Made by a program: the position numbers and the translations under genes
NCBI GenBank assembly: GCA_004022145.1
Contig: RCNU01000025.1
Length of the DNA stretch: 40,125 nucleotides
From: Paecilomyces variotii
Taxonomy: Eukaryota
Reading direction: 5' to 3' (one strand)
The notes under the pieces: model-generated
Seen by the model: only the letters and a program-made list of their open reading frames with translations
What the model was told of the DNA's origin: nothing
Databases searched by the model: none
Shown: one piece after another, positions 1,531-36,919 of the stretch
Numbering within the stretch: the first letter of the stretch is position 1
How the letters are laid out: each line of letters begins with the position of its first letter

Positions 1531-2070
1531 TTGGATAGCTCTAGGGCAAATAATGGGCAACCAAGCTAGGGTTATGACACCTGGATTGCAAAGATAATGC
1601 ATTGTGACTGAAAATCATGTAAAGGATTTCTAGGAGAACTTTGAAATGTCTACGTCAAACTTTGTTAGAATAATCTTCTGTCTCTCGCAGTATGACTAGA
1701 ATTTCTGCCAGAGGGTCCAGGCTGAATGATTTTTAAAAAATGTTGAACCTTATACTCTGATTTATTCCCCAGGCTCTTCACGAACTTCAGTTGTATATAG
1801 CACCCTGGCCAATGTATCCAAGATAGCAATAATTCAGAACATACGATATCCCGGACGGGGTATCCCAGACAACAATGGTGTACTAATCACATGCTTAACC
1901 TTAAAATATCCAGCCTCAAGCGACGGTTGCAAAAAAAAAAGAAACACAACCAAAGAGCTCGGTGTTCAAAGCGGCTCCCGCCAACCCAAATATCATTTAG
2001 GATATAGCACAGTAAGGTGGACATGGACCTTAGCTATACTTTGATGTTGTTGACAGTTGGGTGAGTGTTA

Positions 2071-2113
2071 ACGTATTTCACTACCGAGCGGCCACTACCC
2101 CCGAGTGGCCACC
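2071..2113 (+). repeat. Left terminal inverted repeat of the Fot1/pogo element
   Basis: Exact reverse complement of 3902-3944. Confidence 0.95.
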
Positions 2114-2164
2114 TCACCTAAAACGCGTCAATTAATTTACCCCCTTCTTCTTCAACCACCTACC

Positions 2165-3838
2165 ATGCCACCAATTCGCTCCCGAAGCTCTAGAAATTCA
2201 ATAGAGCAAGAGGGTAGGATCTTATTAGCTATCCAGGCTTTTAAAAATAGAGATATCGGCTCTATTGCTCTTGCAGCAAGCACTTTCAATGTCCCGCGTA
2301 CAACTCTCCGCCGCCGAATTGATGGAGTACAAAACCGCGCGAATTCTCGCGCAAATTCGTCTAAATTAACAGAAATTGAAGAGGAATCGCTTGAAAAATG
2401 GATTCTTTCTATGGATCTACGTGGAGCAGCCCCCCGGCCCTCTATGGTACGAGAAATGGCGGATCTTCTTCTTCAAAAGCGTGGAACTACCCCGGTTCTT
2501 TCGGTCGGCCAAAATTGGGTTACGAAATTCGTTAAACGACGTCCTCTCCTCTCCTCCCGATTCTCGAAACGGTATAACTACGAGCGTGCGAAATGTGAAG
2601 ACCCTAAAATCATTAGGGAGTGGTTTGATTTAGTTCAAAAGACAATCCTTCAATTTGGAATCGACCCCGACGATATCTATAACTTTGACGAGACTGGTTT
2701 CGCGATGGGATTGACTGCAACTACGAAGGTTATTACGCGGAGTGAATACTACGGTCGGAGGCCTGTTTTACAACCTGGAAATCGTGAATGGGTGACAGTG
2801 GTTGAATGTACGAATGCTTCTGGATGGGCCCTTCCTCCGTGTATGATTTTTAAAGGCAAAGTCTTTATTAAATCATGGTTTGACGGCCTTCCGGAGGACT
2901 GGCGCTTCGAAGTTAGTCCTAATGGCTGGACCTCTGATGAGATTGGACTTCGTTGGCTTGAGAAGCTCTTTATTCCTAGTACTTTACGTACGAAGGGGGT
3001 ATACCGGCTTTTGATTCTTGATGGTCATGGCAGTCATTTAACGCCTAAATTTGATGCAATTTGCGAGCAAAATAAGGTGATACCAATTTGTATGCCAGCG
3101 CATTCATCTCATCTTTTACAACCTCTAGATGTGGGTTGTTTTGCAGTACTAAAACGATCGTACGGTCGGATGGTTGAAACTAAGATGCGGAACGGGATCA
3201 ACCATATTGACAAACTTGACTTCCTTGAAGCATACCCTCTCGCACGAATTGAAGCTTTTAAATCGGAGACAATCAAGAATAGCTTCTTAGCTACCGGTTT
3301 AGTACCGTTTGAACCCGATCGGGTTATTTCGAAGCTCAATATCCGGCTTCGAACCCCAACCCCCCCCCCTAGCCGGGGGAGCGAATCAAGCCGAAATTTT
3401 ACACCAAAAACACCAGCTACAGAGAAAGATCTACGTCGGCAGGCTTCGTCAATTAAAGCTCTACTTCGTACAAGATCTCGAAGCCCGCCTAGCCCGTCAG
3501 ATCGTGCATTAAACCAGCTTGTGAAAGGCTTCCGTCTTACAATGCAAGGTGCTATCCTACTCGCCAAAGAAAACAAGGAATTACGCGCCGCCAACGAGAA
3601 GCAGAAGCAAAAGCGTACTAGATCCCGGAGGCAGATACCTGCCGAAGAAGGCCTTTCAGTTCAAGAAGCCTCTGCATTAATTATGCAGCAACAAGAAGCA
3701 ATTGAAGCACCTCTCCCCGGCCCCGGCATGCCTGGAGAATCGACTGTTCAGTCACGTACGCGGCCCCCCCGGGGGTGTGGAATATGCAGATTGCCAGGGC
3801 ATAGGAGAGAAACATGTCCAGATAGACCAGTTAGTTAG
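2165..3838 (+). CDS. Fot1/pogo DDE transposase (HTH_psq, CENP-B HTH, DDE_1, C-terminal CCHC), 557 aa
   Basis: FNVPRTTLRRR HTH; catalytic motifs YNFDETGF, LILDGHGSH, LQPLDVGCF; terminal CGICRLPGHRRETC. Confidence 0.95.
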   Translation: MPPIRSRSSRNSIEQEGRILLAIQAFKNRDIGSIALAASTFNVPRTTLRRRIDGVQNRANSRANSSKLTEIEEESLEKWILSMDLRGAAPRPSMVREMADLLLQKRGTTPVLSVGQNWVTKFVKRRPLLSSRFSKRYNYERAKCEDPKIIREWFDLVQKTILQFGIDPDDIYNFDETGFAMGLTATTKVITRSEYYGRRPVLQPGNREWVTVVECTNASGWALPPCMIFKGKVFIKSWFDGLPEDWRFEVSPNGWTSDEIGLRWLEKLFIPSTLRTKGVYRLLILDGHGSHLTPKFDAICEQNKVIPICMPAHSSHLLQPLDVGCFAVLKRSYGRMVETKMRNGINHIDKLDFLEAYPLARIEAFKSETIKNSFLATGLVPFEPDRVISKLNIRLRTPTPPPSRGSESSRNFTPKTPATEKDLRRQASSIKALLRTRSRSPPSPSDRALNQLVKGFRLTMQGAILLAKENKELRAANEKQKQKRTRSRRQIPAEEGLSVQEASALIMQQQEAIEAPLPGPGMPGESTVQSRTRPPRGCGICRLPGHRRETCPDRPVS

Positions 3839-3901
3839 TTGATTTAATTTAATGGCGTTTTGGTTGAGATAAATGCATTTGAAATTTATACATTTGGGTG
3901 G

Positions 3902-3944
3902 GGTGGCCACTCGGGGGTAGTGGCCGCTCGGTAGTGAAATACGT
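3902..3944 (-). repeat. Right terminal inverted repeat of the Fot1/pogo element
   Basis: Exact reverse complement of 2071-2113. Confidence 0.95.
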
Positions 3945-3946
3945 TA

Positions 3947-4230
3947 AGTCATTCTCTTGTCTAAGATTTTTGAAACTTCCTCCAGAGGCCGGCTCTTCGT
4001 CTCTGGAAAGAGAAAGTAAAAAAATACCAAGAAAATCATGAGACAGCCTACATTGACGCAATGGTAGTTCCAATAGAGCACAAAAAAAGCCACCTGGTTG
4101 ATATATTGGACGAAAAATCCAGCTACAGCATCGATTGAAAACATAGTCGCAAGGCCCTTTGCGTTGTAATATGATGCTCGTGCAACTCTGGAATAAAGCC
4201 GAAACATCGGAAATAATTCCACCACTGTCT
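3947..4230 (-). pseudogene. C-terminal remnant of an MFS sugar porter (lactose/hexose permease-like)
   Basis: VELFP, AGFFVQYINQVA, FYFLFPETKSRPLEEV resemble the sugar-porter PETKG..LEE C-terminus; no N-terminal half visible. Confidence 0.65.
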
Positions 4231-4610: not shown

Positions 4611-6590
4611 ATGGCGGTGATGGTTGCGACTGGTGCAAACGCACAGAAATTGTTCCTGGACGGGAGAGGAATACCGAAAACTATGGTACCCGGTGGCCCA
4701 CCTATATTGATGGACGACATCGCAGAAGGAGCTCACCGGGTGCTAAACTATATTGAGAATAATAGCACAGAGGACCGATATGTCACTGGATATATTCGGG
4801 CTGTCCGCCAATATGCACTCAACGCCTAACGGGGCGATGGCATGGAGATGGCCAAGGTGCTTAAAATGTTGGCCGAGATTAACGCCGATATTAAACGCCT
4901 GAACCAACGTATCAAAACTGTTGAGAAAACAACGAGCACACTATTGATGTCTTTGTCTACCCTTCCTGCTGACTCCGCGGCAGTGTGGCGAGCCTTTTGA
5001 GCTAAAGACTGGCAGCGTGGCTTGGCCCAGGCTGAGACGCCCAACCTCTGTAGCTACGGCACATCGCCTCCGGGGGTCCTGGAAATTGAGCTTTGCGAGG
5101 ACAGGGAATTGATTGTGAAAGTTGGACCCAACTGTGTATAGGTCTGCGCGTTATCACCTAAGGAGCTTGTGGAACGGATAGAGCGACAAAAAGCAATGGT
5201 TACTAGACAGAAGAACTCCACGGCCCTAGCTGGAGGGGCTAGCTTTGTTGTAGCCCGGAAACTGCCATCAGGCGATGTGGTAATGATAGCAAATAGTGCG
5301 GCAGGGGCTAAGACCCTCCGCAGGCACACCGAGTGGCTAAGGGCGTTCGGGCCAGGCTCGATCGTCCAGGAACCGTTATGGGGGGTTGTGGCGTATAATG
5401 TTCCGGTGAAATCGATGAAGCTTACCCCGGAGACGATGACCAACGTCGCAGCTGAACTGCTCGCGCAGAATAACTGGGGAGAAGCTGCCAGGATTCAGTA
5501 TGTCGGCTGGCTGAAGCGGCCGGGGGCACGAGCAGAGGGCTCGGTCCTAATCGAGTTCACTAGCCCAATAGTGGCTAACCACGCGATCGTCACTGGTGTC
5601 GTCTATGGTAAGCAAATCCATCATGCTGTGCGTTTCTGCTGGGAAGGGCGGACAAAGCTATGCAGGAAATGCTAAAAGCCGGGGCATATCCAGTCACACT
5701 GTTCCAATGACTTCAAATGTGGCCACTGCGCCGATGGGCACCCGACCTGGGAGTGCCCATCGACGAAGGGGCAAAAAATACTAGTCAAATGTGCCAACTG
5801 CGATGGAGATCACCGCCCGACTAGTCAAGAATGTCCAGTAAAGAGGGCAGCCATGACCGAGGCTAAACGAGCATTAGCTGATTCATCTACCTACCACCGC
5901 GTGCCTCTGCATTTCCGACATACCGTGGATGGCAGCAAGGCGGCACCTCCGACTACTGGACTTGGAATATCAATGCCTGCACCGGAGAGACAGGCGGAAG
6001 ACGAGTCACCCCAGCAACCCCAACCGGTTGCAATCGACCTGGAAGCGGAACCACATGCTATGGGGGCGCCGGCTAAACAGCATATTGAACTAACAAAGAC
6101 CAGGAGAGGTCTGGGCCGCCCGAAAGGTTCAAGAGTCAAGCCCAAAGATCAGGGACTGCAACCGAGAGACAACATAGCCCCAACGGCAAATCAACGATCA
6201 ACAAGATTGCAGGCCGCCTCTCAGAAAGCGGCCCAGGAACACACCATTTCTAAAAAGCGCCGCGTGGGCGAACCCGAGGACACTATGGATGAACAGCCAG
6301 ACGATAGCAACTGGCTCGATATCTGTCTCCCTCAGGCAGAGCTATTACAGGACTACCCGCAACAAGATCGGTCCGAAATTGAGCTTACTCAGTTCACTAA
6401 CGAAGTTACCACAATCAATAATACTAACAGTCCCGAGCCTAGTCTTTAGAACCTGGATCTAGATAGTCCGGAGTACCGAAAACTAATTACTTTAAAGTAT
6501 AACTGCCTATAATCCATACCAGTCAGATTATCTCCTCCAGTGTTTATAACTGACGCACCTATAATTAAAGATTAAAATAATGAAATATAG
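4611..6590 (+). pseudogene. LINE ORF1 (gag-like), interrupted by a few RIP-type stops
   Basis: CRKC*KPGHIQSHC, CGHCADGHPTWEC, CANCDGDHRPTSQEC knuckles; in-frame pieces 4611-4829, 5169-5675, 5853-6449. Confidence 0.85.
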
Positions 6591-6615
6591 CATAAAACAA
6601 GCGAGCATAGCGATA

Positions 6616-9600
6616 ATGAACAAACATATTAATAAGATTATTCTAATTGCTCTAGTATAATGTACATAAATTGTAGTTAGTAATAGCCACTTTTCTTAGG
6701 GACACAGTGGTCCTTGCGGCGGATATTATTGTAATTTAAGAGCTATGGCGAAATGAACAGCAACATATAACCTACTAGCCAGCGACTATAGTATTTCAGC
6801 TAGTATACCCAGCAAAACAAATCTCCTAAAACTAGAATTAACCTCAGGATCCGGAATCAGACCTATCTCCGCCAGGAATATGCTTCTTCGTCTTGAGGAA
6901 GATTGATCTTAGCACCTGGTCGTGCTAACTGATAATGCAGGATTATCAGCTACTAAAGCTGAGAAAAGCTTATATTAGCAAGGATTAGATAGACCTATTT
7001 ATATATAATATATATAACAGGCCAGGCAGCGATATACTGGTCCAGCTAAAAAATAAATTAGCTAGGCGACTGCTAGCTGAACATATTATAATAGGAGATA
7101 TAAATACTCACCACTTAATATAGGAAGGACTAGGAGTTAGGGCCAATAATAAAGCTAAGCAACTGCTATAGATTATAGATAAGCAAGATCTAGAGCTAAC
7201 TATTGAGCAAGAGAAAGCTATCTAAATATAAAACAATCAATTATTGGTAATTAACCTTATATTTATTAGTTTAAGCCTTAATAGCAGATTTATCTGCTGT
7301 AAGCAAGCGGATAATATTAAGCAAGTATTAGACTATTTTCCTATTAGAATGGCAATTAATATTAAAACACCAATTGCTATATAATAAAGGTAGAGAAACT
7401 AGAAAGCTACTAACAACAAGAAACTAGTCAGAAAAATTGAAGAGGGCCTACAGACTATGGAACAATCTGTGGCCAATTACCTGCAAATTAAAGCGCAATG
7501 TTAAAGACTGATAGAAGTTGTCCAGTCAGCTATTAACTTCTTAACTCTATAGGCGAACCCATTAGTATGGTTAAACCTAGATTTTAATAATAAGTATAAG
7601 GCTGTAGTAAAAGATATCCGCCAACTATAATATATCTACATAAGAATAAAGGACCCTTATAATTGGATATAGTATTCAGAGGCATATAATAAGAAGACAC
7701 GCTTAATTAAGAAAACGCTCTCTAGAGTATACTAACGCCAAGTCTAGCAAGTCATTGAAGACGGGCTATAAGATATGTGGCGCCTTATAAAATAGGTAAG
7801 ACACCGAGATAGGGCATATAAAAAAGGTCTTACTCCTTCCTTAAAAATTTAAGACCCTTAACAGCTGGGTAAGATTGCAGAAATAGTTGATTAAAAAGCA
7901 GAGGCTTTTTAAGCGGCCTTCTTTCTACAACCACTATAAGCAGACCTCTCTAATACTTCGTCCTATTGATATTTATAACTGATCGATTTCCCTCCAATTA
8001 CAGCATAAGAGATACACGATGTAGTAAGGACAGTGAAAGCAGGGAAGGCACTAGGAGATGACAGGATCCTAAACTCCCTGTGGCATAAGCTGATCGGGAT
8101 CCCTAGTGTTTTGCAGGTGCTGGAATATATGTTTAATGCGTGCATCCGCACTAGCTATAATCTAACATATTTTCAGAGGTTAATCACGGTAGTCCTCTGA
8201 AAACAAGGCAAAAGTAACTATTAACTGGCAAAGTCCTACAGGCCAGTTGCGCTTCTCAACACTCTGGGAAAGTTTCTCGAAGCGGTAATTGCACGACGAA
8301 TTAGCTATGCTGTTAAAACCGAAGGACTGCTTCCAAAGACTTATCTCGGCGGCCGACGAGGCATTTCCACAGACTATGCTATTCATATTATGGTCGACCG
8401 AATCAAACTGGCCTGGGGAAAGGGCAAACCTGTAGTGTCCCTACTAATGCTGGACGTGTCTGGAGCATACGACAATGTATCCCACGACAGATTACTCCAT
8501 AACCTCAAAAAGCGAAAACTGGGGCAGCTCGTCCCCTGGGTTAAAGCCTTCCTGTCGAACCGGAGCACAAAAAAAAAAAAAAAAAATTCAAAAAATTCGA
8601 ATGCCGGAAGGCACATCCGATCCGTTTCCGACACACACCCACAGGCATTCCACAAGGGTCGCCAATTTCCCCGATCCTCTATTTGGTCTACAATGCAGAC
8701 CTGATTAAGAACTATAGAAATAGAGTAATAAGCAGCGGCTGGGTAGATAATGCCTATTTTATAATTAAAGGAGATAGCGAGCGGGAGACTATAAGAAAGC
8801 TCTGTTTAGTATGCTAAAAGGCCGACTAATAGGCTAAGACGCACGCTTCGGTCTTTAATCTGAAGAAATATGCGCTCGTGCATTTTATAAATATAAAAGA
8901 GGTCGACCCAAAATATACGGCGCTGAATTTATAAGGTTATATAGTTATAATAATAAGAACGGCCGAGCGGTACTTAAGCTATTAGCTCGATCTAAGCCTA
9001 GACTTCCAACACTACCGCGAGACAGCAGTTACAAAGGCAGGCATATCCCTCCAGGTATTATAGAGCCTGGCCGGCTCTACCTGGGGAAACTCCTTAGCCG
9101 CTATGCGCAGGATTTATTAAGCCATAATTATCCCCCAGTTGCTCTTTGGAGTATCAGCTTAGTACTAGCCTATATTAGCTAATAAAGTGAAAATACGCAT
9201 AATCAGACAACTATTTATAGTTATATAGAAATATGTAGTATACCTAATTAATAGGGCATTTAGGACGACAGCAGTAGAAGTATTAAACATAGAATTATAC
9301 CTACTACTAATTATAATCACTATAAATAAGATAGTTAAAGAAACAGCCCTATAGCTATAAACAGGACCTATATTTACTATACCACCAATAATACTATAAT
9401 GTTAACTAGTGGATAAGAGAGAATAGTCTAGATAATTACTAATAAAGGCGCAAGCCTAAAAAATAAGCAGATGCCTTATAATTCCCTTAGAAACTTTAGC
9501 CAGAGACTAGGAGAGTCGGAAGGTATTTATTTAGGCACTATAATAAGCGCCGCCGGAGGTAACTATTAAAGACAGAGAGACCGCTATAAATTATTATAAT

Positions 9601-10581
9601 AAGACCTTACTTAAAAACTTGCAAGAAAGACCCTTAATACTCTATACTAACAGTAATAGAATTAAAGGAAAGATTAATACAGCGGCGATAGTTAATCCAA
9701 AGAAAAAATATGCTTATAACTAGATAGGCAATAAGGAAATATCTATAGTATATGCCGCGGAGCTCCGCGCTATTAAGATAGCCCTTGCCTTAGCCTTGCA
9801 GAGCACAAAGCTATAGACTGTACTAGCAAAGAATAGGCTCATTATTTTTACAGACAGCTAAGCTATATTAAAGGCACTCTGCCGACCGCGAATATTGTTA
9901 GGGCAAGCCTATCTGGCTGGGTATCTAGACCTGATCTAGCGACTTGCATGCACCAGAGGCATCTAGACAGAGCTTAGGTAAATCCCTGCCCACCAGAGAG
10001 TAACCGGTAATAAAATAGTCAACCAACATATAAAAGAAGCAGCCCAGGAACCTAAAGGATTACAGAATTCTTATAATCAGAATATCCGCCTTACAGCTGC
10101 GGTAAAGCGCTGTATCTACAGTGAGGTAAAGATTAAGTAAGAAAAATTATAGACTAGCAAAAAAACTAGTCGGCCGATAAAATATTTAATTAAAGTATTA
10201 ACCCAGAAGACCCTAGCATATTAGTTAGGCCTAAGGAAAGCAATAACATCAATTCTGATACAGTTTTGTACTAGACAAATTGGGCTATATATATATCTAA
10301 ATTATATTAACAGATATAATTTAGCGCAGTGTAATTATAATTTAGGAAATTAGATAGTTAATTACATTTTGCTGGAGTGCCTGTTACTTTAAAATAAATA
10401 TAAATAGATAAGAAATGCCTTATCTAACTGTAGAGTCACTCTTTAATGCGATAATCTTCTAGAGCGACTAGAGGCTTGCATAATTATAGCGGAATTTGTG
10501 GTTAGAACAGGTCTTTTAGACTAGTTTTAGGCAGTCGACCCAGTCGCTCTTAGTATAGGAGAAGGCGATGAGATAGAATAA
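6616..10581 (+). pseudogene. LINE ORF2 (endonuclease-reverse transcriptase-RNase H), RIP-damaged and frameshifted
   Basis: RT motifs LLNTLGKFLEA, LMLDVSGAYDNVSHDRL, GIPQGSPISPILYL; RNase H-like YAAELRAI; poly-A insertion at 8569-8590. Start coordinate approximate. Confidence 0.88.
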
Positions 10582-11034
10582 CCCCTCAGAATAGTGTAAT
10601 AGAGGAAGAAGGATAGCGCCTGCTAGGAGTGCAGTGCTAGGTCTACTGCACTCCCTTAATCCAAGCAAATATGTAAGCGGAGGCCAACAGCAGAAATAAT
10701 AAAGCAGGAGAGAGTAAGAGAGTAATGCGAAGGCGTAGTGTATATATATCTAGCGAGATAGATCCCGGATTGTGGGAGGATCCAGGGGGAGGATATTTGT
10801 TTTAGGTTAACTGATTTTGTTTATTGTGTTTGCATATCTGCATTTCCTTTATCTTATTTGCATTTGTTCAAGGATAACTAATAAGGAGCTCGCTCTATAA
10901 GCCCCATTAGACAGTTTATCTAGTAAGCAGGCGCCTACTCTATAGCTATCGGCAGGCCCGACAGCACTCCCGCATAGCAGCATATATTTAGAGTAAGCTA
11001 CATCGGGCAAATAAATTCATCATCATTATCATCA

Positions 11035-11048
11035 TTGAACACTTAATA
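11035..11048 (+). repeat. LINE target-site duplication, right copy
   Basis: Identical to 4464-4477. Confidence 0.92.
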
Positions 11049-11056
11049 ATGGCAGA

Positions 11057-12330
11057 CTACCCAATCTCTATATATGTTTCCCCGCTTTGGCTCAGAATAT
11101 CTGCCAGGAACGGTGTCTTGAGGATTTTCTTATTAGCCAACATTATCAATATCCCCTAAAACGTAATAAGCCAAAGCAAAAGAGTGATGCCTGATAGAAC
11201 CTAGCATAAATAAAACAAAGTTAGTGAAAATTTTGTTGAAGACAGTCCGCGTGGATAAGTAACTTGCCGTTGCAAAGATCTTAAAGAATGTTGACGACAG
11301 TTGATTACTGATCATTATTGTTGCCATAGCTAACGTACCTACCAAGTTCAGAATATGCCGCTTTAGTGCACGAAAAAAATTCAGAAAGGATATAATACCC
11401 GTCGGGAATGTTGTACTCCACCAATTGATGTTAAAAGAGACCTTTGCTCTGACTGCTGATGTTGCTGCAAAAAGGAACCACCACAACCCACACGCCCAGA
11501 AAGGGAGGCCGGCTACCAATCCTATCTTGGAGAAAATTTCCTCCGGACCTGGTGCCCTAGAAGGTCTGAGTCTCACGCTGCATAATGGATAAGCTTATAT
11601 GCATCCTACCAGGAGTAACTGATCACCAATTTCTCCCAATCTCATAAGCCTAAAAACACCATTAGTGAAATGTATCGTATGTATTTGGCTGTGAGTTGAG
11701 GTATACCCAAACGCGCCGTATCCAAATGGACCTGTTGGCAGAGCTAACGACACTATATGCTCCTTTGGTGGCATATTGGTCTCCAGTATGTTGTAGACAT
11801 AGAGTATAATGAAAGCCATGGCTGGAAGTATGCCAATACTCCACAGGATATAGCTTGTGATAGCCGTCTGAGTTATCTGACGTTCGCTCGAAAGGACTTC
11901 CGCAATAACCCCACCCGAACTTGCAGAGACAATCGGCGCAAGAAATGGAAATAACCCGCTCGTCGTCATGACCGATGACTTTATACCGTGGGTCCAGAGT
12001 CTGTGGTTGAGATGAGCAGAAAAATAAGAGGAAGCAAGAAGAATAAAAAATAGCCACTTACATATTGAAGGAGACAAGGCAGCAGACCAGAATCGAGAGA
12101 GAGACATCTACCCACCACAGAATCCAAGCTAGTTGAATCGGCCAGCAATTGCAGCTATGCGGTAGAGTGTCCAAGTATATACGGGAAACTCCGCACACTA
12201 TGAGGAATGGGCAATAGGAAAAGGCGAGAGCTATTGCAAGGTCATTTAAGTAGACATCGATTTCTATACTAATCATACCCAGATTCCTGGGTCAGTAATA
12301 TACTGTATGGCGTTGTAATGATGACGTATG
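11057..12330 (-). pseudogene. TDT/SLAC1-family (Ssu1/Mae1-like) anion/dicarboxylate transporter, multi-exon, premature stop in last exon; 5' end uncertain
   Basis: LAWILWWVDVSLS, APIVSASSGG, LALPTGPFGYGAFG, LPFWACGLWWFLFA, FNINWWSTTFPTG motifs; in-frame TAG at 11156-11158; natural stop 11057-11059; no clear start ATG found. Confidence 0.75.
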
Positions 12331-12488
12331 CGTCAAACTGTAACTACTGCAATTGCTATAATGTATTAAGGGTATATACACGCTGGCAACTTTTCAATCC
12401 CAGAGCCTGAACCTCAGAAACTCCGATATAATTACAAATGAAAAACTTTCTTGACCCCTCCGATACAGGCTTGGTCTATTACTACATA

Positions 12489-12562
12489 GCGCTTATTTGT
12501 CACTTCCATCACAACTTTCCAAATACAGTAACTAACTGGGCGTCCCGGTAAGCAGACCCACA
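12489..12562 (+). repeat. Dispersed non-coding element, copy 1 (core plus TCCCGGTAAGCAGACCCACA)
   Basis: GCGCTTATTTGTCACTTCCATCACAACTTTCCAAATACAGTAAC...TCCCGGTAAGCAGACCCACA; matches copies at 12984, 14563, 14638, 26308 (rc) and 28859. Confidence 0.9.
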
Positions 12563-12983
12563 ACGTAACGAGCTAACAGTGATGTTCCAAAAGTTTTTGA
12601 ACACCCCCTGTACGGCGTAACCTACAGTACTCCGTATATGAGAGTCGGTTCCTATTGGGCGACTGACTCCTAATGCAGCTGACTACTTCATGGCGCTAAC
12701 CCGAAGGGGAAGAGAGTCCTTACAACCTACAGCACCTGCCTTAACCGCTCTCACCGCCTGCTGGATACGCCGAACGGAGAAAATGCTGAAATTTCCAGCA
12801 CATCTATTGCAGGCGGTTTCTCGTAGAACTGAGACATTCAGCGAGTCAGAAAGGTTGTATGCGCCATATCAGTATATGTAGAAGGTATTCTGGTCAATAT
12901 ATATAAGCGTTCACACCGGCAGAAAGTTATGTAACCAAGGGGCGTGGGCAGAGTTTTAAACCTTAACTATGAAACATGACTGT

Positions 12984-13023
12984 GCGCTGATTTGTCACTT
13001 CTATCACAACTTTTCAAATACAG
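12984..13023 (+). repeat. Dispersed non-coding element, copy 2 (~160 bp upstream of merB ATG)
   Basis: GCGCTGATTTGTCACTTCTATCACAACTTTTCAAATACAG. Confidence 0.9.
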
Positions 13024-13074
13024 GACTTTCTCGTACTACTCGTAAAATCTGTTTGGCCAAATACGTGTAAAGGT

Positions 13075-13080
13075 TATAAA
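13075..13080 (+). promoter_or_regulatory. Candidate TATA box of merB
   Basis: TATAAA ~100 bp upstream of ATG 13182; it overlaps the upstream ATG 13080, arguing against that start. Confidence 0.4.
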
Positions 13081-13181
13081 TGTTCTGTTCTCGATGCGTC
13101 CGTTGCTGTCGACAAAAAAATTCAACTACACATTTCGTCCGTCCCTCACAGGCCTGCTATTCCCTAAGCCTGAATTCGCCA

Positions 13182-13820
13182 ATGTCACAGAAAAGCTCCG
13201 TCTCGCTTGAATATGAGCAACTTAAGAACCAGTTACTCGCCGACATGATGGCAATACCAGCATTCTTCCCGGCACTTCTCCGACTTGTTAGCAGAGGAGA
13301 ACCAGTACCCATTGCTGCTCTTGCTACCGAAGTACACATACCAATCCACGATATCGAACAGTGGCTCCGTCAACAGCCCGGGACCGACTGGGACAGCCAG
13401 GGACGGCTGCTCGGTTTCGGCCTTACCCAGCGCCCGACAAACCACCGATTTGTCCTGGATGGCCGGACCCTTTACACATTCTGTGCCGCAGACGCCTTGA
13501 TTTTTCCAGCCCTCCTTGGCCAAACCGCAAATGTTGAGTCCAGATGCGCGGATTCAGGCCAGCAGGTTCATGTCAAGGTTGAGCCAAATGCGGTTGTGTT
13601 TGCCGACCCTGGACAGACAATGGTTTCACACATTCCCGGGTCTCTGAGCAGTTGTGACATCAGAAGCACAGTATGTAACCACGGCGTTTTCTATGCCTCG
13701 GTTGAGTCTGCGCTTCACTGGCAAGAGAGACACCCCAACGGGGTGGTCCTTCCAGTTGAAGAGTTCTTCAATATTTGTTTAGCTGGATTGAAGAAGGCAG
13801 GCCTCATTCCATTTACGTGA
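13182..13820 (+). CDS. merB: Organomercurial (alkylmercury) lyase MerB, intronless, 212 aa
   Basis: Colinear with bacterial MerB: ALLRLVSRGEPV, DWDSQGRLLGFGLTQRPT.HRF.LDGRTLYTFCAADALIFPALLG.TA.VES.C, DIRSTVCNH..FYAS; C101/D104/C165 correspond to the MerB catalytic Cys96/Asp99/Cys159. Confidence 0.93.
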   Translation: MSQKSSVSLEYEQLKNQLLADMMAIPAFFPALLRLVSRGEPVPIAALATEVHIPIHDIEQWLRQQPGTDWDSQGRLLGFGLTQRPTNHRFVLDGRTLYTFCAADALIFPALLGQTANVESRCADSGQQVHVKVEPNAVVFADPGQTMVSHIPGSLSSCDIRSTVCNHGVFYASVESALHWQERHPNGVVLPVEEFFNICLAGLKKAGLIPFT

Positions 13821-14562
13821 AAGCCTGCGAAAGCGCAGTCATAACTATCTTATCCTGGGACGCGTCCTCTATTACTAAGTAGAGTCCCATCCGATCGAAT
13901 GGCACATATAACTATCTGAAGCTAAGTCGACTAAGTGTATAGCTACAATATCGGAATCTATGTAGGCTCCCAGCAATCCTAGTAAGCAGACACACACTTA
14001 TATTTAAAGTGGCAGTCAAGAAGCAGGAGTTCGCTTGACATGACATCTCAGATCCCCCGTATCATTACATAGCGACTGGACGCCTTTTTATACTCATGAC
14101 ACTGAAAGTTGTCGACTTCATTTGAGACTTTATCGGAACAAGTTCGTAATATTGGAGAAATTTTCTGAGGCTGGTTAAGGGTAGGGAAGCGTGTGTTGCA
14201 AATATTCTTGGGCGGCGGTGTAGCCTTCGCTTGTCCCATTCCTTATTTCTGAACTGGGTGTAGGGACGGGCAAGAACGATGCTGAAGACTTACCATAACC
14301 ATACAATCCATGATAACAGACTCTTATAGTAATGCATGTCCTTGACTGAATTTAGAATTTAGGGAAAGTGAATGACGAGGAGCAGAATAAGCCCAATCGA
14401 GGTCAATCAGTCAGTCCCTCGTACGGTTCGTTCCTTCTCCCACCAAGTGACTAGCTGAGGTTACCATAACGTTGCATCATCTATGCCTTCAGACTCGAAG
14501 TATTTGTGTGTCTATTTTGCTTTCCGTTAAATTCGTACTCCGTATAGTGCACAATGATGAAA

Positions 14563-14684
14563 CCAACCCTTATTTGTCACTTCTATCACAACCTTTTAAA
14601 TACAGTAACATCCCGGTAAGCAGACCCACATGCAAGGCCAACGCTTATTTGTCACTTCTATTACAACTTTTTAAATACAGTAAC
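14563..14684 (+). repeat. Dispersed non-coding element, copies 3 and 4 (tandem, 75-bp period)
   Basis: CCAACCCTTATTTGTCACTTCTATCACAACCTTTTAAATACAGTAAC at 14563 and CCAACGCTTATTTGTCACTTCTATTACAACTTTTTAAATACAGTAAC at 14638, separated by TCCCGGTAAGCAGACCCACA. Confidence 0.92.
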
Positions 14685-15084
14685 TCTGTACTCCGTACCG
14701 CTATGAACAAGGATTTATAGCCTATTATAGAGGTCAATCAGGATACGCTAGTGCCTTTGCAGAGCACTAAATCCAAAAATTTATAAATTTTATCCAAAAT
14801 TTTTTCGGCCGCTTAGGCTCTTAGCCAAGAAAAACTAATTCTAATTATGTTAATATAAGTGCTTATTTTCCCTTAAAAAGGGGCAAAGCACGGAATAACC
14901 GTGGTAATTTATGTAAGGGACGGTTATATGAGGATGGGACTACTGTTTAAATATGCAGTGTCTACTGCTTTAACTCGAACCAAACCTCATCTACCTTCTG
15001 ACTACGAACGGTCTTCACTGTATTTTGGCTTTCGTCCTTAACAACTCCATCTTTAACTGCCCGCGCCTTTTTCTTCGTGTTACT

Positions 15085-16202
15085 ATGTCGAATTTCGAAG
15101 GAGCTTATCCCGAATTGAGGGGAAAAGAGATGGCTCTCGGGAGTAGTCACCAGGGTATCTTGGAAGGCTCATCCCAGCAGAAACTGTCGACTTTACGTCC
15201 AGGAGAATTCGAGAAAATGTATATGTCGCCCGCGAACAAGGTGGATGGAAATTTGCGACCAATCTTTGGCAACCCCACTCCCCTGTGAGTCTTCATTCGA
15301 CTAGTACACTAGGGCTTCCATATTCTGATTCAAACAAAACCGATAGTGGCTTGTTGGGCATGAATCTCAGTGTGAGCCCTCTTTGCTGCCAGTTAATGGG
15401 ATGGGCTGGAGCTGGCGGTGGAGGTGCTGCAACGGTGTCAGTTTCATCCCACATGTTGAATAAATAGGCTTCAATTCTCTGTGGATCTGACCAGCTTGTT
15501 TGGACAGCGGCGCTTTCTATTTCATAGGTGGGCTCCTTATGACTCTGGCAGGCGTTCTAGAGTTCATTCTCGGCAACACCTTCACATTTGTCGTCTTCTG
15601 TTCTTTCGGTGCGTTGATTTACAAAGTATGTCATGACAATATGTCATCCGACTGATTTAAACAGGTGGCTTCTGGTTTTCTTTCGGGGCGACTCTGACCC
15701 CGGCATACAATGCGACAGGGGCGTATAACCCGTCAAATCCAATGAACCCGGAATTTCACTCATCATTTGGTATTATGTCTCCTGGTGTTATCAATGAGAA
15801 ATTCTAACAGATGATTTTCGACAGCTTTTTTTGCGTTATTCATGGGCTTCCTCTGTTTCGTATACCTTATCTGCAGCTTTCGGATCAACTGCGCCTGCAT
15901 GATAATGTTTCTCTCTATGACACTTGGCTTCTGCTTAATGGCAGGTACTTATTGGCTTATTGCGCGCGGAAACATGGATCTTGCTGAGAAAACGCAAGTT
16001 GTTAGTCCATCTCTTCACTAACCCCGTGTGTCAATTACTGACAACATGCAAGGTAACTGGAGCTTCGCTTTTTGTGACGAGCATGTCAGGCTGGTATTAT
16101 TTCGTGGCAGAGCTGTTCTCAAGCATTGGCATGATGTCAATCCCAGTGGGGGATCTCAGTCGTTTTGCTAAGCGTATCGGCCTTATGGAGAATAAAGACT
16201 AG
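15085..16202 (+). CDS. GPR1/FUN34/YaaH (SatP/AcpA-like) acetate/short-chain carboxylate channel, multi-exon
   Basis: FGNPTPLGLLG, LMGWAGAGGGGAA, LEFILGNTFTFVVFCSFG, GWYYF, IPVGDLS; GT-AG introns (first donor at 15285) keep the frame for the first three exons checked. Confidence 0.88.
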
Positions 16203-16782
16203 ATGGGAAGGCTTGGGCACGTTGGATATGGCTATGTGTGTAACAGATGTTTGATGTAGTGAGAGGTGAGGTTAACTAGGCAGTGGTGTGTTGATGCGGG
16301 TACTGTCGTCGATTTCGACTACATCAAATCATGGTCTTTAGTTTGGGTGAACTCGGCGAGGAAGCAAAGGGAATATGGGCTATTGTTTTTTAGTGCAAAA
16401 CGCCCTGGATAATAAGATCCCGGTTCACTTTCATCTCCTAGGTTGTTGCTTGACGGAATCAATGGAAGGTGGTTGATGAATTCTCAAACAACACAGCCTC
16501 CGAAACCACCACGCTTGCCCCCAGATCTATAAGGATCCGTCAATAATGCTTACACACAACAGAATTTCTATAAGGGTGGCATTGCGGGTAACATTGCACC
16601 TGGCCCGGTTAGACTCAACGTCGCTTTGGGTTATTCCCAAGAATTAGCCATATGATTGCTACTATTCGCTTGTATGCGGAGAAATGGAAAAGTTGCCAGA
16701 ACTGATTAGATCCGCTTATGAGTAGGTTGGTGAACACGTATATTTTCAGTATTGGCCGGTTAAAGAGAATGCAGAAAAGAAA

Positions 16783-22981: not shown

Positions 22982-25542
22982 GGGGAAAGGGTAAGCCGGT
23001 GGTATCCTTGCTGAGGCTGGATGTGTCAGGAGCATATGATAATGTATCCCACGAACGATTACTCCATAACCTCAGAAAACGGCGACTGGCCAACTCGTGC
23101 CCTGGGTAAAGGCCTTTCTCTCAAACCGAAGCACGACAATCCGGATACCCGAGGGCAAATCAGACCCCTTCCCGACACCAACCGGCATTCCCCAAGGATC
23201 GCCAATTTCACCTATCCTCTACCTAATCTACAACACAAATCTTATCAAAATCCACGGGAATGAAGTGACTAGCAACGGCTGGGTAAATAACGCCTGCTTT
23301 ATAGCTAAGGGAGATAGCAAGCGGGAGACCATCAGGAAACTCAGATTGGCTTGCTAAAAGGCGGACCAATGGGCCAAAACCTATGCCTCTGTATTTAATC
23401 TGAAGAAGTATGCGCTTATACACTTTGTGAACACCCAAGAGGTCGATTTGTAATACACACCGCTATCTCTCTAAAGATATATAGTGGCCGCAATCTGAAC
23501 AGCTGAACATTATTTGGGATACTGGCTAAACCCTGAGCTAGAATTTAATTATCACAGGGAAAAGGCAACTGTCAAGGCAGACATGTCTCTCTAAGCGTTA
23601 CGGAGCCTAATAGGTTCAATATAGGGAGCCTCTATTTCAGCTATATATAGAATCTACCAAGCAGTAGTTGTCCCCCAAATACTCTTTAGGGTATTAGCCT
23701 AGTACTAACCAATGGTAATTAGCAAGACGAAGGCACGCACAATTAGTTAACCTTTCATAACTATCTAGAAGTAGGCAGCGTGCCTAATTAGTAGAGTGTT
23801 TAGAATAATAGCAGCGGAAGCTCTGAATATTAAATTATACCTACCTCCTATTATAATCTATATAAACCGGCTTATAAAAGAAATAGCTGTGTAGTTATAA
23901 ACAGGACTAACTTTTATTATTCCCCCTATAATGCTATAAAGTCAACCTATAGATAAGAGAGACTGGTCTGGATAGATACTGATAGAGGTATAAGCCTAGA
24001 AGATAGGCAGATATCTTATTAATCTCTTAGATATTTTAGCGAGCTGCTGGGAGAGTTAAAAGGTATTTATTTAAGCGCTATGGCAAGCGCTACTAAAGGT
24101 AATTATCGAAGATAGAGAGATAGCAATATATAATTAGACTAGATCTTAGCCAAAGATTTAAGCAAAAGACCCTTAATACTATATACCAATAGAAGCAGAA
24201 TTAAAAGAAGGGTCGGAGCGGCAGCGATTATTAGCCTTAAAGATTAATATACTCACAGCTAGATAGGCGATAATAATATATCTACTATATATGCTGCCGA
24301 GCTTTACAGCATTAAGATAGCACTTATATTATTCTTAGAGAGCACAGAATCGTGGGCTATATGGGGGAAAAAAGGGCTTGTCATCTTCACAGATAGCTAG
24401 GCGGCATTAAAGGTACTCCGCCAGCCGCGAATGCTATCCGGACAGGTCTATCTAGCAGGTTGTCTAGACCTTATATACCAACTCGGTACAAAAGGCATTC
24501 CGACAGAGCTTAGGTAGATTCTAGCTCATCAAGGAGTAATTAGTAATAAGCTTACAGATTAATATGCAAAAGAAGCTGCGCAGGAGCCCTAAGGACTAGA
24601 GAACCCTTATAATCGATATATCCACCTAGCTACTACAGCTAAACGCTAAATTCACAGCAAGGCGAAGATTGAGTGGGAGAGGGCGTGGGCGAAGGAGAGG
24701 ACTAGCCGACTAATGAAATGCCTAATTGAGGCACCAATAAAAAAGGCGCTGGTATACTGGTTAGGGCTATATAAGGCAACATCGTTAATTCTAATATAAC
24801 TTCGAACTGGGAAAATCAGTCTTAGTGCATATCTGAGTCGCATTAACTAATGCAACTTACCCCGGTGCGACTGCGACCTAGGCAACCAGATAGTGACTTA
24901 TGTTTTACTCAATTACCCGCTGCACCAGGACAAGCGCAATTAGATAAGAAGCGCTCTTTCCAACCAAGGAATCGCTCTCCGCCGGGATAAGATTTTGACC
25001 CGGCCAGAGGCTCGCATAATTATGGCCGAATTCATGGTTAAAACCAGCCTCCTAGGCTAGTTTCAGGTGGTCGATCCAACTACTCTATATGTAGAAGAGG
25101 GTGATAAGAAAGATTAACCCTTCAGAACAGTGTGACAGAAGGAGAAGGATAGTGCCTAAAAGGACTGTAGTGCCAGGTCCACTATAATCCCTTAATTAAA
25201 GCAAACGCGCGAGTGGCAGCCGATAGTCTGGGTGGCTGTGCAGAAGTAGGTGCGAGGGAGGTAATTATGGGGAAGGTGATCCTGGGTTGTAGCAAGAACC
25301 AGGGGGAATGTTCGTTTTGAATTTCCTACTTGTTTATGGTGTTTGCATATCTGCGTTTCTTTTATCTGCATATATTTGAGGACGACCAATCAGGAGCTCG
25401 CTCCGCGAGCCTCATGAAACAGTCGTTCAGTGGGCTGGCAACCACTTTAAAGCTGTCGGCAGGCCGGATAGCACTCCCGTATAGCAGCATAGATTAGAGC
25501 GAGCTACATCGGGCAAATGAATTCATCATCATCATCATCATC
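22982..25542 (+). mobile_element. 5'-truncated Tad1-like LINE (RT to 3' end), diverged relative of 4478-11034, RIP-damaged
   Basis: LDVSGAYDNVSH, PWVKAFLSNRST, GIPQGSPISPILYL; ORF2 stop at 25115-25117; same 3' end GCTACATCGGGCAAAT.AATT followed by (CAT)6; no TSD found. Confidence 0.92.
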
Positions 25543-26307
25543 TTGCTGGCAGGACGGCAGTTGTCAGATTTTAAAATCACAGGTTTTGGGGAGCTGCAGT
25601 ACAGACTCACAGGGTGCGTATTACCCGAAGGTAGAGCCGCCTCACTTTTGAACGAATTCTTGCCGCTCTTCCGGACAGAGTTTGGTTGTCAGTATTTTAC
25701 GCATTAGGTCTGTACGTACGAGTATACGCAACCCAGTTGTGATTCGGAACTACAGTCAGCGAGGCTTTGATTGGATGGGATGCTGAGGAATTACAGGTTC
25801 AGCCTTCGCAGAGATTGCCTCCTGATCGCCACTTGGTTCCAAGGAACATCTGGAACTAGTCGGTCGTAATTCATGAAAGGTTCCCCTCGAGTAGACGCAC
25901 GCCTCGCTCATACCGCTATGGCCCTTGTGTACAGTGGCGCCACAGAAGTCTGCGACCACCCCTTTGACCGCCAGCATCTCCGCCTCCCTATTATAGCCTA
26001 CCTAAAGGTAGTCGCGCGTCGCGTTCTACATTACGTTATTGAAGATAATTTTTTGTGCAGCAGAATTAATGGCAGAAAAAAGCCGTCAATCAGGGGGTGG
26101 TCGCAGACTTTTGCGTCGCCACTGTAGGTCCGCTTGCTACGTACGACAGTACAGTACACTAATTAGGGCAGGGACGAGTACTAGGCAAATTGACAAAGTC
26201 GTGCCATAGAACTGAAGACAAGTAATAGGCCGCTTTAATTCGACCCTGCAAGGTTGTGGGGGTTCCAGGCTGGCTTTGCTAGCGAGTTGCGCACGAGGGA
26301 GTGCTCA

Positions 26308-26342
26308 GAAAAGTTGTGATAGAAGTGACCAATGAGCGTGGG
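26308..26342 (-). repeat. Dispersed non-coding element, copy 5 (inverted)
   Basis: Reverse complement reads CCCACGCTCATTGGTCACTTCTATCACAACTTTTC. Confidence 0.85.
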
Positions 26343-26584
26343 TTTTATCAATGTGCACGATGCGAGTTTAATGGAACACTACAGTTGTGGAAAGTTACTC
26401 CAGTATCCAAAGGGAGAAATCTCTTCATTGGTGATTATTTCGGAGCAGAGACTTGTGGCCAGCCCATAGGAGGATGCACCGTCGTTAGCCGCAATGTCAA
26501 GTATTTAAGCCCTGGATTCTCGAAAGTTACTCCAACCTACCTTGCATGACATTCATGGTACTCTGCCGTATCTTGACCACCGAC

Positions 26585-27538: not shown

Positions 27539-28190
27539 AGGTGGCAAAGATTGCAGCCATCTGAACCAACGAAATTAGGATCAGACAAGAGCTCTCGTCG
27601 TCACAAATAATTTGATCAACTTCTTGGAGCCGTGCGCCCCTGGTTATCGAGATATTTCAAGAAATCGGTTTTGCCGAGAAAGAGATTGTTTTCCGACGAT
27701 AGCAATATTTGAGGAGCTATCCTCGACTTTCTTCAAGGTCTTTGGTATAGCAAGTGCTTCGCAACCAAATAAACCCTTGAAATCAACAGTTGCTTATGTC
27801 CGCTTTACAAATTCCCGATCCTATCATGCATCACGCTTTTGCCCCGGTTTATCGTAACTATCGGAACAGTTAAAAATAATAGTCAACAAGAAAACACTCA
27901 AGACGACATTTATGGCAGATATGCTGGGTTCAGTGACCAATTCATGTGCCTGGAATGTGCATGACTCTTTAGGGCTCTCATCAATCTTTGGTAGAACTAT
28001 CCATAGCAATATTTCACCACAATTTCTAGGATTCATGACATTGTAGATCTCTTCTCCATTGCCAATATAGTCAAACCGTGGAAACTCAAATGCAGGCAAT
28101 CAGCAACTCGAGCCTGTATCCCGACGCAGGTCCAACTGCAGACCAAGCTAGCTACAACTTGGTGGACTTGGATAGGCGAGCAAGTCGCGA

Positions 28191-28835: not shown

Positions 28836-28893
28836 GGTAGGCAGACCCGCAACTGGCGCCAACGCTTATTCGTCACTTCTATCACAACTTTTC
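28836..28893 (+). repeat. Dispersed non-coding element, copy 6 (between paralogue B and the ada-like gene)
   Basis: GGTAGGCAGACCCGCAACTGGCGCCAACGCTTATTCGTCACTTCTATCACAACTTTTC matches 14615-14672 over ~58 bp. Confidence 0.9.
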
Positions 28894-29411
28894 TTACCAA
28901 TATCTGTGTCCACCCACACCTCTTTCCGTGGTGGCTGCGCCACATCCTGATCCCAAAAATCCTGGTCACACTTTACCAAAAATCAAGTGACCTGGGGGAG
29001 GCGAACATGGGGTTCTTCACTAAATCTGCGGTCATGTGATGCTTCTTCTGTATTAGTCATCAACACGACCTTTCCTTTTTCGTTACAGTGCGCTCAGACC
29101 ACAGCCAATGATGAGGCCGAATTCTGCCAAATTCTGCCACGCTAACCCGATGGGTTGCTTCATCAGTCTGTCAGCATCGCTGGAAAAAGTAGGCGGTGGA
29201 CGGCCAAATTCACCGCTTTTTGGGGGGCGGCTGGGGAAACTGAGTTAAGTCCGAGTGCTGTTTGACCACTCCTTCAGTTCGTCCTGTTTGACCATTACGC
29301 AGCAAATCTGAACCCCATATATCCACTATATCTTGACTATCCTACCTTGAATATATAAATCACATACCGGGATAATTTTCTCAAGAGCATTTTCTAAAAA
29401 CACAGTGCGAT

Positions 29412-30125
29412 ATGGAACCATCTCCACCACTACCGCTCTTGCCTCCACAACCGACGTCCATGGCGGCGGCTTCCGCAGCATCACGCTGGAAGGCGGTAGC
29501 CGCGCGAGATGCGTCCAACAACACCTTTGTCTACGCCGTCCGCTCGACACGCATCTACTGTCGCCCATCATGCCCGGCGCGCCTCGCGCGGCGGGCAAAC
29601 GTCGAATTTTTCGACACGCCCGCACAGGCCGAGTCGGCCGGGTACCGGGCATGCAAGCGTTGTCAGTTTGACGTCGACGTGAAAGATGATCCACGGAGTC
29701 GACTGGTCCAGCAGGCACGTGACACCATTGCTGCAGCTGTCCTTTCATCATCGCCATCGGGCCGTCGAAGACCTAGACTGCAGGAGCTCGCAGCCGAGGC
29801 GAATTTGACGCCGAGTCACTTTCATCGTGTGTTCAAGAAGATCGCCGGGGTGACGCCACTCCAGTATGCACGGGCCGTGCGAGATACAGCGAGAGCTAGC
29901 AAAGAGGCGGATAATGTGGACATTACGGGAGAGAGTGATGCCTTGTTTCTGCAAGATGCGGACGGTTTAAATCACTGGGTCGATCTTTGCCAGGCACAGC
30001 TAGACGATACGATCATACCGGACAACGATTTCACCATGGACGATCTTATTGACTGGAATCACTTCGATGACATGATAATAGCTGTAAAGGAATCTGGTGC
30101 TCTGGGTCTGGAGTTGGGCACATGA
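29412..30125 (+). CDS. Ada-like (AdaA/methylphosphotriester methyltransferase-type) Zn-binding plus AraC-HTH regulator, intronless, 237 aa
   Basis: RWKAVAARD..FVYAVRSTRIYCRPSCPAR...NVEFF...AESAGYRACKRC (four Zn cysteines); LQELAAEANLTPSHFHRVFKKIAGVTPLQYAR HTH; acidic C-terminal tail. Confidence 0.9.
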   Translation: MEPSPPLPLLPPQPTSMAAASAASRWKAVAARDASNNTFVYAVRSTRIYCRPSCPARLARRANVEFFDTPAQAESAGYRACKRCQFDVDVKDDPRSRLVQQARDTIAAAVLSSSPSGRRRPRLQELAAEANLTPSHFHRVFKKIAGVTPLQYARAVRDTARASKEADNVDITGESDALFLQDADGLNHWVDLCQAQLDDTIIPDNDFTMDDLIDWNHFDDMIIAVKESGALGLELGT

Positions 30126-35700: not shown

Positions 35701-36250
35701 AGAAAGCTGGCTAATATCTAATGCTAAAGATATTATATTAAATCAAAAAGTATTAAAATAAATATTAAGAATATAACCTACTAAAGTCCTCTATCCTATA
35801 CTCTTCTTATAATATATTATTTTTTAGGCTGTAGTAAGCTGCTTTGTAAGTTTTTCCTAAGGTATTAAGCTGCTCTACTATAATAATAGTCTGGGTATTA
35901 GAGCTAACTGAAGAGTATTCTTATAATAAATTTAGTATTAGCTGCTAGAAGCTTTAATAATCTAGTATTATTATAATAAATAAGAGGATATTTTAATAGA
36001 GGAGAGTTAGAGTAGACAGGATATATAGAGAAAACTGTAAATAAGGTATCTATAGGGATATTTATATTTTAGGCCTTATTATCTCTTTACGCCCGTCCTA
36101 CTATAAAGTAAAACATTAGAAAATTAGGACAGCTTTTAGCTTTATAGTTAATACAATATAGTAATTAGACTATATATTTTATTAGTATAGCTCCTCAACC
36201 TTTTATTATAGCTAATTAAAAAGCTGTTTAATCTTATAATAGATTAATTG
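32750..36250 (-). pseudogene. RIP-degraded long coding sequence of unidentified family (AT-rich block; limits approximate)
   Basis: Strong TpA excess; a minus-strand frame can be followed by eye for ~2 kb (about 35560 to 33540) with mostly TAA/TAG stops; no motif recognised. Confidence 0.5.
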
Positions 36251-36794: not shown

Positions 36795-36851
36795 GAGCAA
36801 GTCAGGGTCGCTCAGGGAGCAGCTCAGGGTCGCTCAGTGAGCAGCTCAGGG
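36795..36851 (+). repeat. 22-bp tandem repeat (GAGCAGCTCAGGGTCGCTCAG(G/T)), ~2.6 copies
   Basis: Units start at 36795, 36817, 36839. Confidence 0.8.
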
Positions 36852-36919
36852 CGGCGGGGTGACTAACTCACCCTGTGCTCCGGGAGCCGATCACTTCCCG
36901 AGGCGGCAGTTTTACCGTC

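Follow-up and report, generated by a model that had tools for sequence, protein, structure and literature searches.

Organization of the merB locus

A stretch of 40,125 nucleotides (nt) from Paecilomyces variotii (contig RCNU01000025.1 of assembly GCA_004022145.1), referred to here as the window, was analysed around a copy of merB, a mercury-detoxification gene of bacterial type (organomercurial lyase), that lies in an array of short direct repeats. The original prediction, made from the letters alone, had placed merB at 12489-14684 in a cassette-like unit of about 2.1 kb bracketed by these repeats, and had compared it to an integron cassette. In the following, the repeats are described, a second copy of the surrounding non-coding DNA is reported that carries the repeats without merB, and the possibility is discussed that merB entered a short tandem array of Starship-type cargo DNA by an old insertion. 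The coordinates of all features are given in Table 1.

The repeat unit has 75 nt and consists of a 47-nt core, an A, a 20-nt block (block 2) and a 7-nt linker. The core, of about 47 nt, occurs six times in the window, with four local copies on the plus strand and two distant ones. A search with the 23-nt core centre returned six matches with up to three mismatches, the distant ones at 26313-26335 (minus strand) and 28866-28888 (plus strand), while none of 100 dinucleotide shuffles gave any; a profile built from the six cores recovered exactly these six in the window at E <= 8e-12, with the next best hit at E = 4.2. Block 2 was found in two exact copies and in one copy with 85% identity at 13977-13996 (0.00 expected). 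Together with the preceding A, this degenerate copy (B') begins 155 nt past the merB stop, and it was matched in 0 of 500 shuffles. The core pattern ATTNGTCACTTCYATYACAACYTT had no matches in collections of metagenomes, prokaryote genomes and viral contigs, and the only Rfam match at 12000-15100 (E 0.48) was noise.

Both same-orientation two-block units of the original prediction were recovered, one as core and block 2 at 12486-12562, with a 10-nt spacer between the two, and the other as core, A and block 2 at 14563-14630; the start-to-start distance is 2077 nt between the two cores and 2068 nt between the two copies of block 2. An extra core had been announced for each side of this pair, and both cores exist, but the left one (core 2) lies inside the bracket, 155 nt upstream of merB. 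The two far cores and the degenerate block 2 with its A had not been noticed before. Cores c and d start 75 nt apart and are 94% alike over 47 nt, and they thus form head-to-tail units of constant period, as in a minisatellite; the 1.6 units of this array were not reported by Tandem Repeats Finder. The 10-mer GTACTCCGTA stands three times on the plus strand beside repeat units (12627, 14535, 14688; 0.03 expected).

In the window copy, the order from left to right is left arm, core a, 10 nt, block 2, insert I1, core 2, merB piece, A and B', insert I3, core c, A, block 2, linker, core d, right arm. Without the unique DNA, this gives an array of the order core, B, core, B', core, B, core, with four cores and three copies of block 2, an order shared with the sister copy described below. 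Core 2 and B' are read as the two halves of one unit, parted by the merB piece, which replaces the four letters TAAC, and I1 and I3 both begin directly after a block 2, where they replace 7 to 11 linker letters. In our reading, unit sequence gives way to unique DNA at seven junctions, located after unit positions 35 (twice, at both distant cores), 43 (once, at the merB piece), 47 (twice, at the first unit and the array end) and 68 (twice, at I1 and I3). The last ~22 nt of I3 (14541-14562) and the adjoining core c are 84% like the stretch beside the distant core, 26309-26364.

merB is, as predicted, the only recognizable gene between the two-block units. Its product carries the Pfam domains MerB (1.9e-31; 109.1 bits at a cut-off of 27) and HTH_15 (2e-08; 34.7 bits at a cut-off of 27.2), and apart from it no scanned open reading frame (ORF) of at least 35 amino acids (aa) in 12150-14900 had a Pfam match above noise. 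The product aligns to PDB entry 3f2g at E 2.9e-31 with conserved Cys-Asp-Cys positions: counted by eye, C and D of FCAAD and C of VCNHG pair with the catalytic positions of 3f2g_A, the residues numbered Cys 96, Asp 99 and Cys 159 in the plasmid MerB enzyme. As judged from its sequence, merB in the window is apparently intact. A search of metagenome contigs with the protein gave 101 pattern matches, none of which was confirmed.

Table 1. Features of the merB locus and of the surrounding window
Feature	Position	Strand	Basis or remark
Tc5/pogo-type transposon, complete-looking	2068-3947		588-codon frame with domains DDE_1 and HTH_Tnp_Tc5, enclosed by terminal inverted repeats of 55 nt that are 96% complementary
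Reverse-transcriptase-bearing retroelement fragment, direct repeat	8415-11035 and 22982-25541		74-92% alike, ~14.5 kb apart
TDT/SLAC1-family transporter gene, 5' end missing	11096-12144	-	Pfam SLAC1 (gene 11133-12107), tblastn
Left arm of duplicated non-coding segment	12147-12485	+	two contig versions of 12185-12515 in four of four runs
Core a	12486-12532	+	repeat finder, shuffle test, six-core profile
Block 2, first exact copy	12543-12562	+	repeat finder; 20 nt
Unique insert I1, no recognizable gene	12563-12980	+	418 nt; no other match in window; no Pfam match
Core 2	12981-13023 (full match span 12981-13027)	+	unit homology ends after AAATACAG
Insert holding merB, splits one repeat unit	13024-13975	+	952 nt; Pfam, PDB match, single copy
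merB coding sequence	13182-13820	+	158 nt of insert before, 155 nt after
A and degenerate block 2 (B'), second half of split unit	13976-13996	+	3 mismatches; z 5.7
Unique insert I3	13997-14562	+	566 nt
Core c, A, block 2, 7-nt linker, core d	14563-14684	+	1.6 tandem units, 75-nt period
Core c	14563-14609	+	
Block 2, second exact copy	14611-14630	+	
Core d	14638-14684	+	
Right arm of duplicated segment	14685-14899	+	contig 14655-14899: 11 C/G-for-T/A differences in X1
GPR1/FUN34 gene	~15491-16021, start put at 15085	+	
Distant core, inverted relative to the others	26296-26342	-	shuffle test, repeat finder, profile
Relic of second TDT gene, 3' end	27717-27926	+	63.7% over 215 nt to 11300-11093, E 3e-14
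Distant block-2-like stretch, different 7-nt linker and core	28836-28905 (core 28859-28905)	+	

A sister copy without merB

Four public sequencing runs (X1, X12, X13 and X18) were compared contig by contig with the window. X12 and X13 are mixed samples, and contig depth is not copy number and was used as a rough guide only. The comparison revealed that a non-coding segment of ~0.75 kb, corresponding to 12147-12562 plus 14563-14899 of the window, is present in two copies per genome, with merB itself in single copy. The stretch 12185-12515 was found in two versions in all four runs, one near-identical to the window and the other with 27 to 32 other letters and 17 gap letters; in X1, the two versions have 5 and 27 other letters, with the gap letters in the latter. 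Sequence unlike the window precedes position 12147 in all four runs and follows 14899 in X1, X13 and X18, with no such row listed for X12. The arms of the two copies differ by ~7% and six indels, also in runs without repeat-induced point mutation (RIP), and the duplication must therefore be old. Within the window, neither a second copy of the arms nor the two outer flank sequences of the sister copy were found.

The junction between the arms is spanned in X18. One contig of this run (record 28; 678 nt, depth 41.4) joins the left flank to the right flank through an unbroken array without merB, reading 12185-12530, 3 nt, 14606-14684, 34 nt and 14569-14790 of the window. The 34-nt piece consists of an A, block 2, linker and the start of a core, with RIP-type changes, and the contig in total holds four cores and three copies of block 2 in three successive, head-to-tail 75-nt periods. 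A second contig of the same run (record 27; 2606 nt, depth 44.8) carries merB and covers 12185-14790 with two differences from the window. As the mould is haploid, the two contigs represent separate loci. The merB-less contig is neither an empty TDT-GPR1 allele nor a circle; it represents a second, diverged copy in the genome that is bordered by other outer sequence.

Distribution of the locus and traces of RIP

The spread of the locus was assessed with sampled words of 10800-16600, searched in an incomplete index of public sequencing runs. At least 20 runs carry 82-99% of the locus words, i.e. merB and both flanks; they stem from 13 studies and bear ten coded organism labels and that of one lagoon metagenome. 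The original prediction had proposed a search for an empty site, with the TDT and GPR1/FUN34 genes adjacent and merB missing. Such a site would leave ~64% of the words, and no holder among the runs listed had an intermediate share of this kind. In all four runs compared, the contigs from core a to core 2 (12486/12492-13019) and from core 2 to core c (12994-14591/14596) have 0 or 1 differences from the window, and the arrangement of merB is thus the same in each of them.

Near-identical merB was likewise found in named records of other fungi. The closest relatives of the MerB protein form a 90%-identity cluster with 28 members, and by record name the identity is 99.1% for Penicillium rubens, 98.1% for Aspergillus niger, 97.1% for P. 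chrysogenum and 93.4% for P. antarcticum, with an overall range of 93-100% in named Penicillium and Aspergillus records. Further clusters lie at 80-85%, including Hortaea werneckii, and at ~50% in Actinobacteria. Near-identical DNA in different species, by which Starship cargo is recognized, was accordingly seen both in the listed runs and in the named merB records.

Differences from the window are mostly in the flanks, at 10800-11400, 12185-12515 and 14655-14899. In X1, a single difference from the window was counted in contig 12492-13019 and none in 12994-14596 or 14870-16600, compared with 5 differences in 12185-12515 and 11 in 14655-14899. Among 70 changed places in this run, 52 have A or T in the window and G or C in the run, the direction that would be expected if the strain of the window underwent RIP in those stretches. 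In the carriers X1, X12 and X13, letters that are T or A in the window and C or G in the carrier (10800-12515 and 14655-14899) are confined to stretches with a second copy in the genome. The stretches of merB and GPR1, which are single-copy, are unchanged, a local picture of RIP sparing single-copy cargo.

Neighbouring genes and surrounding region

The genes on either side of the repeats were named correctly in the original prediction, with a TDT/SLAC1 gene on the minus strand to the left and a GPR1/FUN34 gene on the plus strand to the right. The Pfam SLAC1 match of the former covers profile positions 108-293 only. Longer relatives were absent from the results of a word-index search but were found by a full HMMER search. 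In a tblastn comparison with one of them, the full-length P0080 (360 aa), residues 113-140 were assigned to 12144-12061, 141-310 to 11999-11277 and 314-348 to 11200-11096, and residues 1-112 had no match anywhere in the window. The homology thus breaks at residue 113, which maps to 12144 and is only three bases away from where the duplicated segment begins on its left side. Upstream of this break, the frame continues into unrelated sequence of the left arm (12061-12276, minus strand), which the public gene model P0079 takes as a new N-terminus. From its sequence, the TDT gene of the window is possibly chimeric or dead. The relic of a second TDT gene lies between the inverted pair of distant cores, and was the sole content found in this 2.5-kb stretch, in which 34 scanned ORFs had no Pfam domain.

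The window also holds NUDIX, APH-like, Ada-like and FSH1 genes. The Ada-like frame (29376-30125) encodes an Ada-type zinc-binding domain fused to an AraC-type helix-turn-helix, in the manner of a bacterial regulator, and lies ~470 nt downstream of a core. The two copies of the retroelement fragment bracket the block of TDT, merB, GPR1, NUDIX and APH genes; when compared with published elements, this repeat is possibly the counterpart of the internal repeats described in Hephaestus. The Tc5/pogo-type transposon is nested in a larger unit with inverted arms of ~400 nt (26-438 and 6408-6821). In the AT-rich tail of the window (32000-40125), GC content is 13-43% per kb, with a TpA/ApT ratio of 1.33 and a (CpA+TpG)/(ApC+GpT) ratio of 0.62, a RIP-like bias.

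Origin of the arrangement

Taken as a whole, the interpretation given in the original prediction is partly supported. merB is indeed present at the repeats in one copy and absent from them in another, as seen in X18, and its insertion, excision or amplification would be possible by ordinary homologous recombination between them; a site-specific system is, however, not indicated. We regard it as an even call that merB represents a fixed, repeat-bounded old indel in Starship-type cargo DNA, which arose by general recombination or break repair and not through an integron-like cassette system. The ancestral state would have been an uninterrupted, region-specific tandem array of 75-nt units within the ~0.75-kb non-coding segment. 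Three unique pieces (418, 952 and 566 nt) would then have entered the window copy between or inside units, either one at a time or together, as a 2.0-kb block derived from a similar array at another place, by ordinary recombination or break repair in cargo DNA that is rich in repeats and prone to rearrangement. The arrangement would have been fixed since, and would move as one block between Eurotiales fungi. That the uninterrupted array came first and merB was added to it is inferred from the fact that the sister array could be derived from the window copy only by three exact deletions. Rearrangement is also evident elsewhere in the region, in the truncated TDT gene, the second TDT relic and the repeated retroelement fragment.

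Several observations weigh against this account. The uninterrupted array is spanned end to end in one of the four runs, the other three showing the left arm only; X1 contains a further joint, but with a side of 30 nt, which was not counted and is a hint only. Array length may vary, and the agreement between the window and its sister in having four cores and three copies of block 2 could therefore be a coincidence. In the mixed samples, the depth of contig 12994-14591 exceeds that of the contig to its left by a factor of 1.7-2 (23.6 vs 14.2 in X12, 48.3 vs 23.7 in X13), which could mean that the merB piece also exists in another context, although such depths are a hint and not reliable. A contig of the lagoon metagenome (X13, depth 31.9), from a diverged relative, seems to hold a stretch of 36 nt resembling the core between 16481 and 16491, in place of nine unrelated letters of the window; this evidence is weak, with sides of only 30 and 36 nt, and the site itself (16482, downstream of GPR1/FUN34) has no significant likeness to the unit in the window. 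The cores are 88-93% alike, compared with 64% for the TDT pseudogene that was possibly duplicated together with one of them, which could point to constraint or to a recent spread of the core and leaves room for a function, e.g. as a promoter module. Finally, two of the seven junctions share the position right after block 2, and the 7-nt linker that follows there differs in the distant copy (TGCAAGG in the array, ACTGGCG at 28852-28858), a faint hint of a preferred break point.

The last of these points, together with the raised depth of the merB contig, the core-like stretch of the lagoon contig and the fact that merB is bounded by units while an array without it exists, would also be in keeping with a dedicated system, integron-like or driven by a Starship captain, in which the units serve as recombination sites for moving single-gene modules in Starship cargo. 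Swapping of cargo between Starships has been reported, with no mechanism named in the available text of PMC11623301. We nevertheless consider a dedicated system highly improbable, and the following findings also speak against the integron-type cassette of the original prediction, a comparison that holds in part only. When folded as DNA, none of the six units has hairpin potential (z -0.87 to +1.21 relative to shuffles), and none of the 39 scanned ORFs of at least 100 aa in the 40-kb window encodes a tyrosine recombinase, an integrase or the captain domain DUF3435; the terminal repeat motif of Hephaestus is absent from the window as well. Junctions occur at four unit positions instead of a single crossover point, and the far cores form an inverted pair with their heads facing inward. 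The structure is identical in the four runs compared, merB is kept in all of the at least 20 holders listed, and the divergence of the sister arms dates the event as old.

A function of the core itself could underlie its conservation. If it were a cis-regulatory module shared by the cargo genes (a promoter element or upstream activating sequence), it would bracket merB merely because the neighbours each carry an upstream copy. Each of the six cores is indeed non-coding and has a gene, or the relic of one, downstream of it: core 2 precedes the start of merB by 155 nt and a TATAAAT at 13074-13080 by ~50 nt, cores c and d are ~400-520 nt upstream of the GPR1/FUN34 start put at 15085, the core at 28859 precedes the Ada-like frame, and the TDT gene and the TDT relic have core a and the core at 26296, respectively, on their 5' side. 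The core is also better conserved than its surroundings. We consider this explanation unlikely, since 35-47 nt at ~90% identity far exceed the usual sites of fungal factors, cores c and d are at the same time 3' of merB, neither block 2 nor the 75-nt tandem array is accounted for, and the upstream regions of merB and GPR1 have no similarity in their flanks beyond the core (z 0.6). Several copies consist of a short conserved island between flanks that are unrelated on either side; together with the inverted pair (41 nt at 88%) and the possible presence and absence of a core at 16481/16491 in the metagenome relative, this could instead reflect the decayed remnants of a small non-autonomous transposon, similar to a miniature inverted-repeat transposable element, that inserted here several times. 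This appears quite improbable, as terminal inverted repeats are found neither within the unit nor at the ends of 12147-14899 (the longest nearby pair has 13 nt at 85%), and no target-site duplication or duplicated flank was seen. With a depth of the array of only ~2-6.5 times single-copy depth in the four runs, a rough measure, the unit is not dispersed genome-wide, and its core pattern had no match in the metagenome, prokaryote and viral collections.

Whichever way merB arrived, the old insertion favoured here provides a before/after pair within one genome, an intact short array and the same array with merB in a split unit, with break points fixed to the base. The pair suggests that foreign genes come to rest in non-coding stretches rich in repeats, and bears on the mechanism by which Starships pick up and swap cargo, which is not named in the available text of PMC11623301 and PMC10104507. 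It is conceivable, though we think it very unlikely, that the 75-nt units are landing pads, i.e. preferred break or crossover sites for the insertion of single genes, among them merB of bacterial origin, into Starships and their exchange between them; the process would then have left its traces in the split unit around merB, in the repeated use of the junction position behind block 2 and in the 7-nt linker with its variable sequence, and would constitute a eukaryotic counterpart of cassette acquisition. If the repeats are preferred sites, the acquisition of cargo becomes testable; if they are not, the locus is the scar of an ordinary rearrangement.

Comparison with known systems

Integron cassettes are bounded by attC sites, mobilized by IntI and bacterial. 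They share with the merB locus a single resistance-type gene flanked by copies of a short repeat, and the existence of a version of the array without the gene. In contrast to them, the units at merB lack hairpins and are 75-nt tandem repeats instead of cassette-specific attC sites, the junctions of merB are at several unit positions, and neither an integrase nor an attI site was found in the window. Current mobility of merB is likewise not apparent, all of the at least 20 holders listed being alike.

The locus was also compared with Hephaestus and with Starship cargo in general. merA and merB of bacterial origin are described as cargo of the Hephaestus family of Starships in the text available of PMC10104507, and fungal MerB homologues, including the one from Metarhizium, demethylate methylmercury according to that of PMC9704736. 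As in the element described in the available part of 10.1101/2020.03.06.981548, a Tc5/pogo-type transposase and a reverse-transcriptase fragment are present in the window, and near-identical copies across genera and RIP marks are further common traits. The window differs in containing no captain gene, no Hephaestus terminal repeat and no defined insertion site; membership in a Starship is thus putative, and the element would extend beyond the window. The internal repeats of ~300 bp that are mentioned for Hephaestus in the source as available may or may not correspond to the duplicated arms. A resemblance of the core tail, on the opposite strand of two of the four local cores, to the Hephaestus target TTAC(N7)A was judged to be due to chance, the motif being of low information. 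In the available text of the literature on merB in connection with Starships, Paecilomyces variotii or mercury, no account of short repeat units around merB was found.

A small single-gene module inside the cargo of a giant transposon is also known from ToxhAT, a transposon nested in a Starship (PMC11623301, as far as its text is available), from which the merB segment is set apart by having no bounding transposase, terminal inverted repeats or target-site duplication. With minisatellite-type tandem repeats, which act as sites of unequal recombination and of insertion or deletion, the array shares the constant period of 75 nt, indel break points at or in units, and a unit number that differs between copies. 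Unlike typical minisatellites, it is very short (2-4 units) and limited to a single mobile region, and its units are separated by unique DNA with a functional-looking gene.

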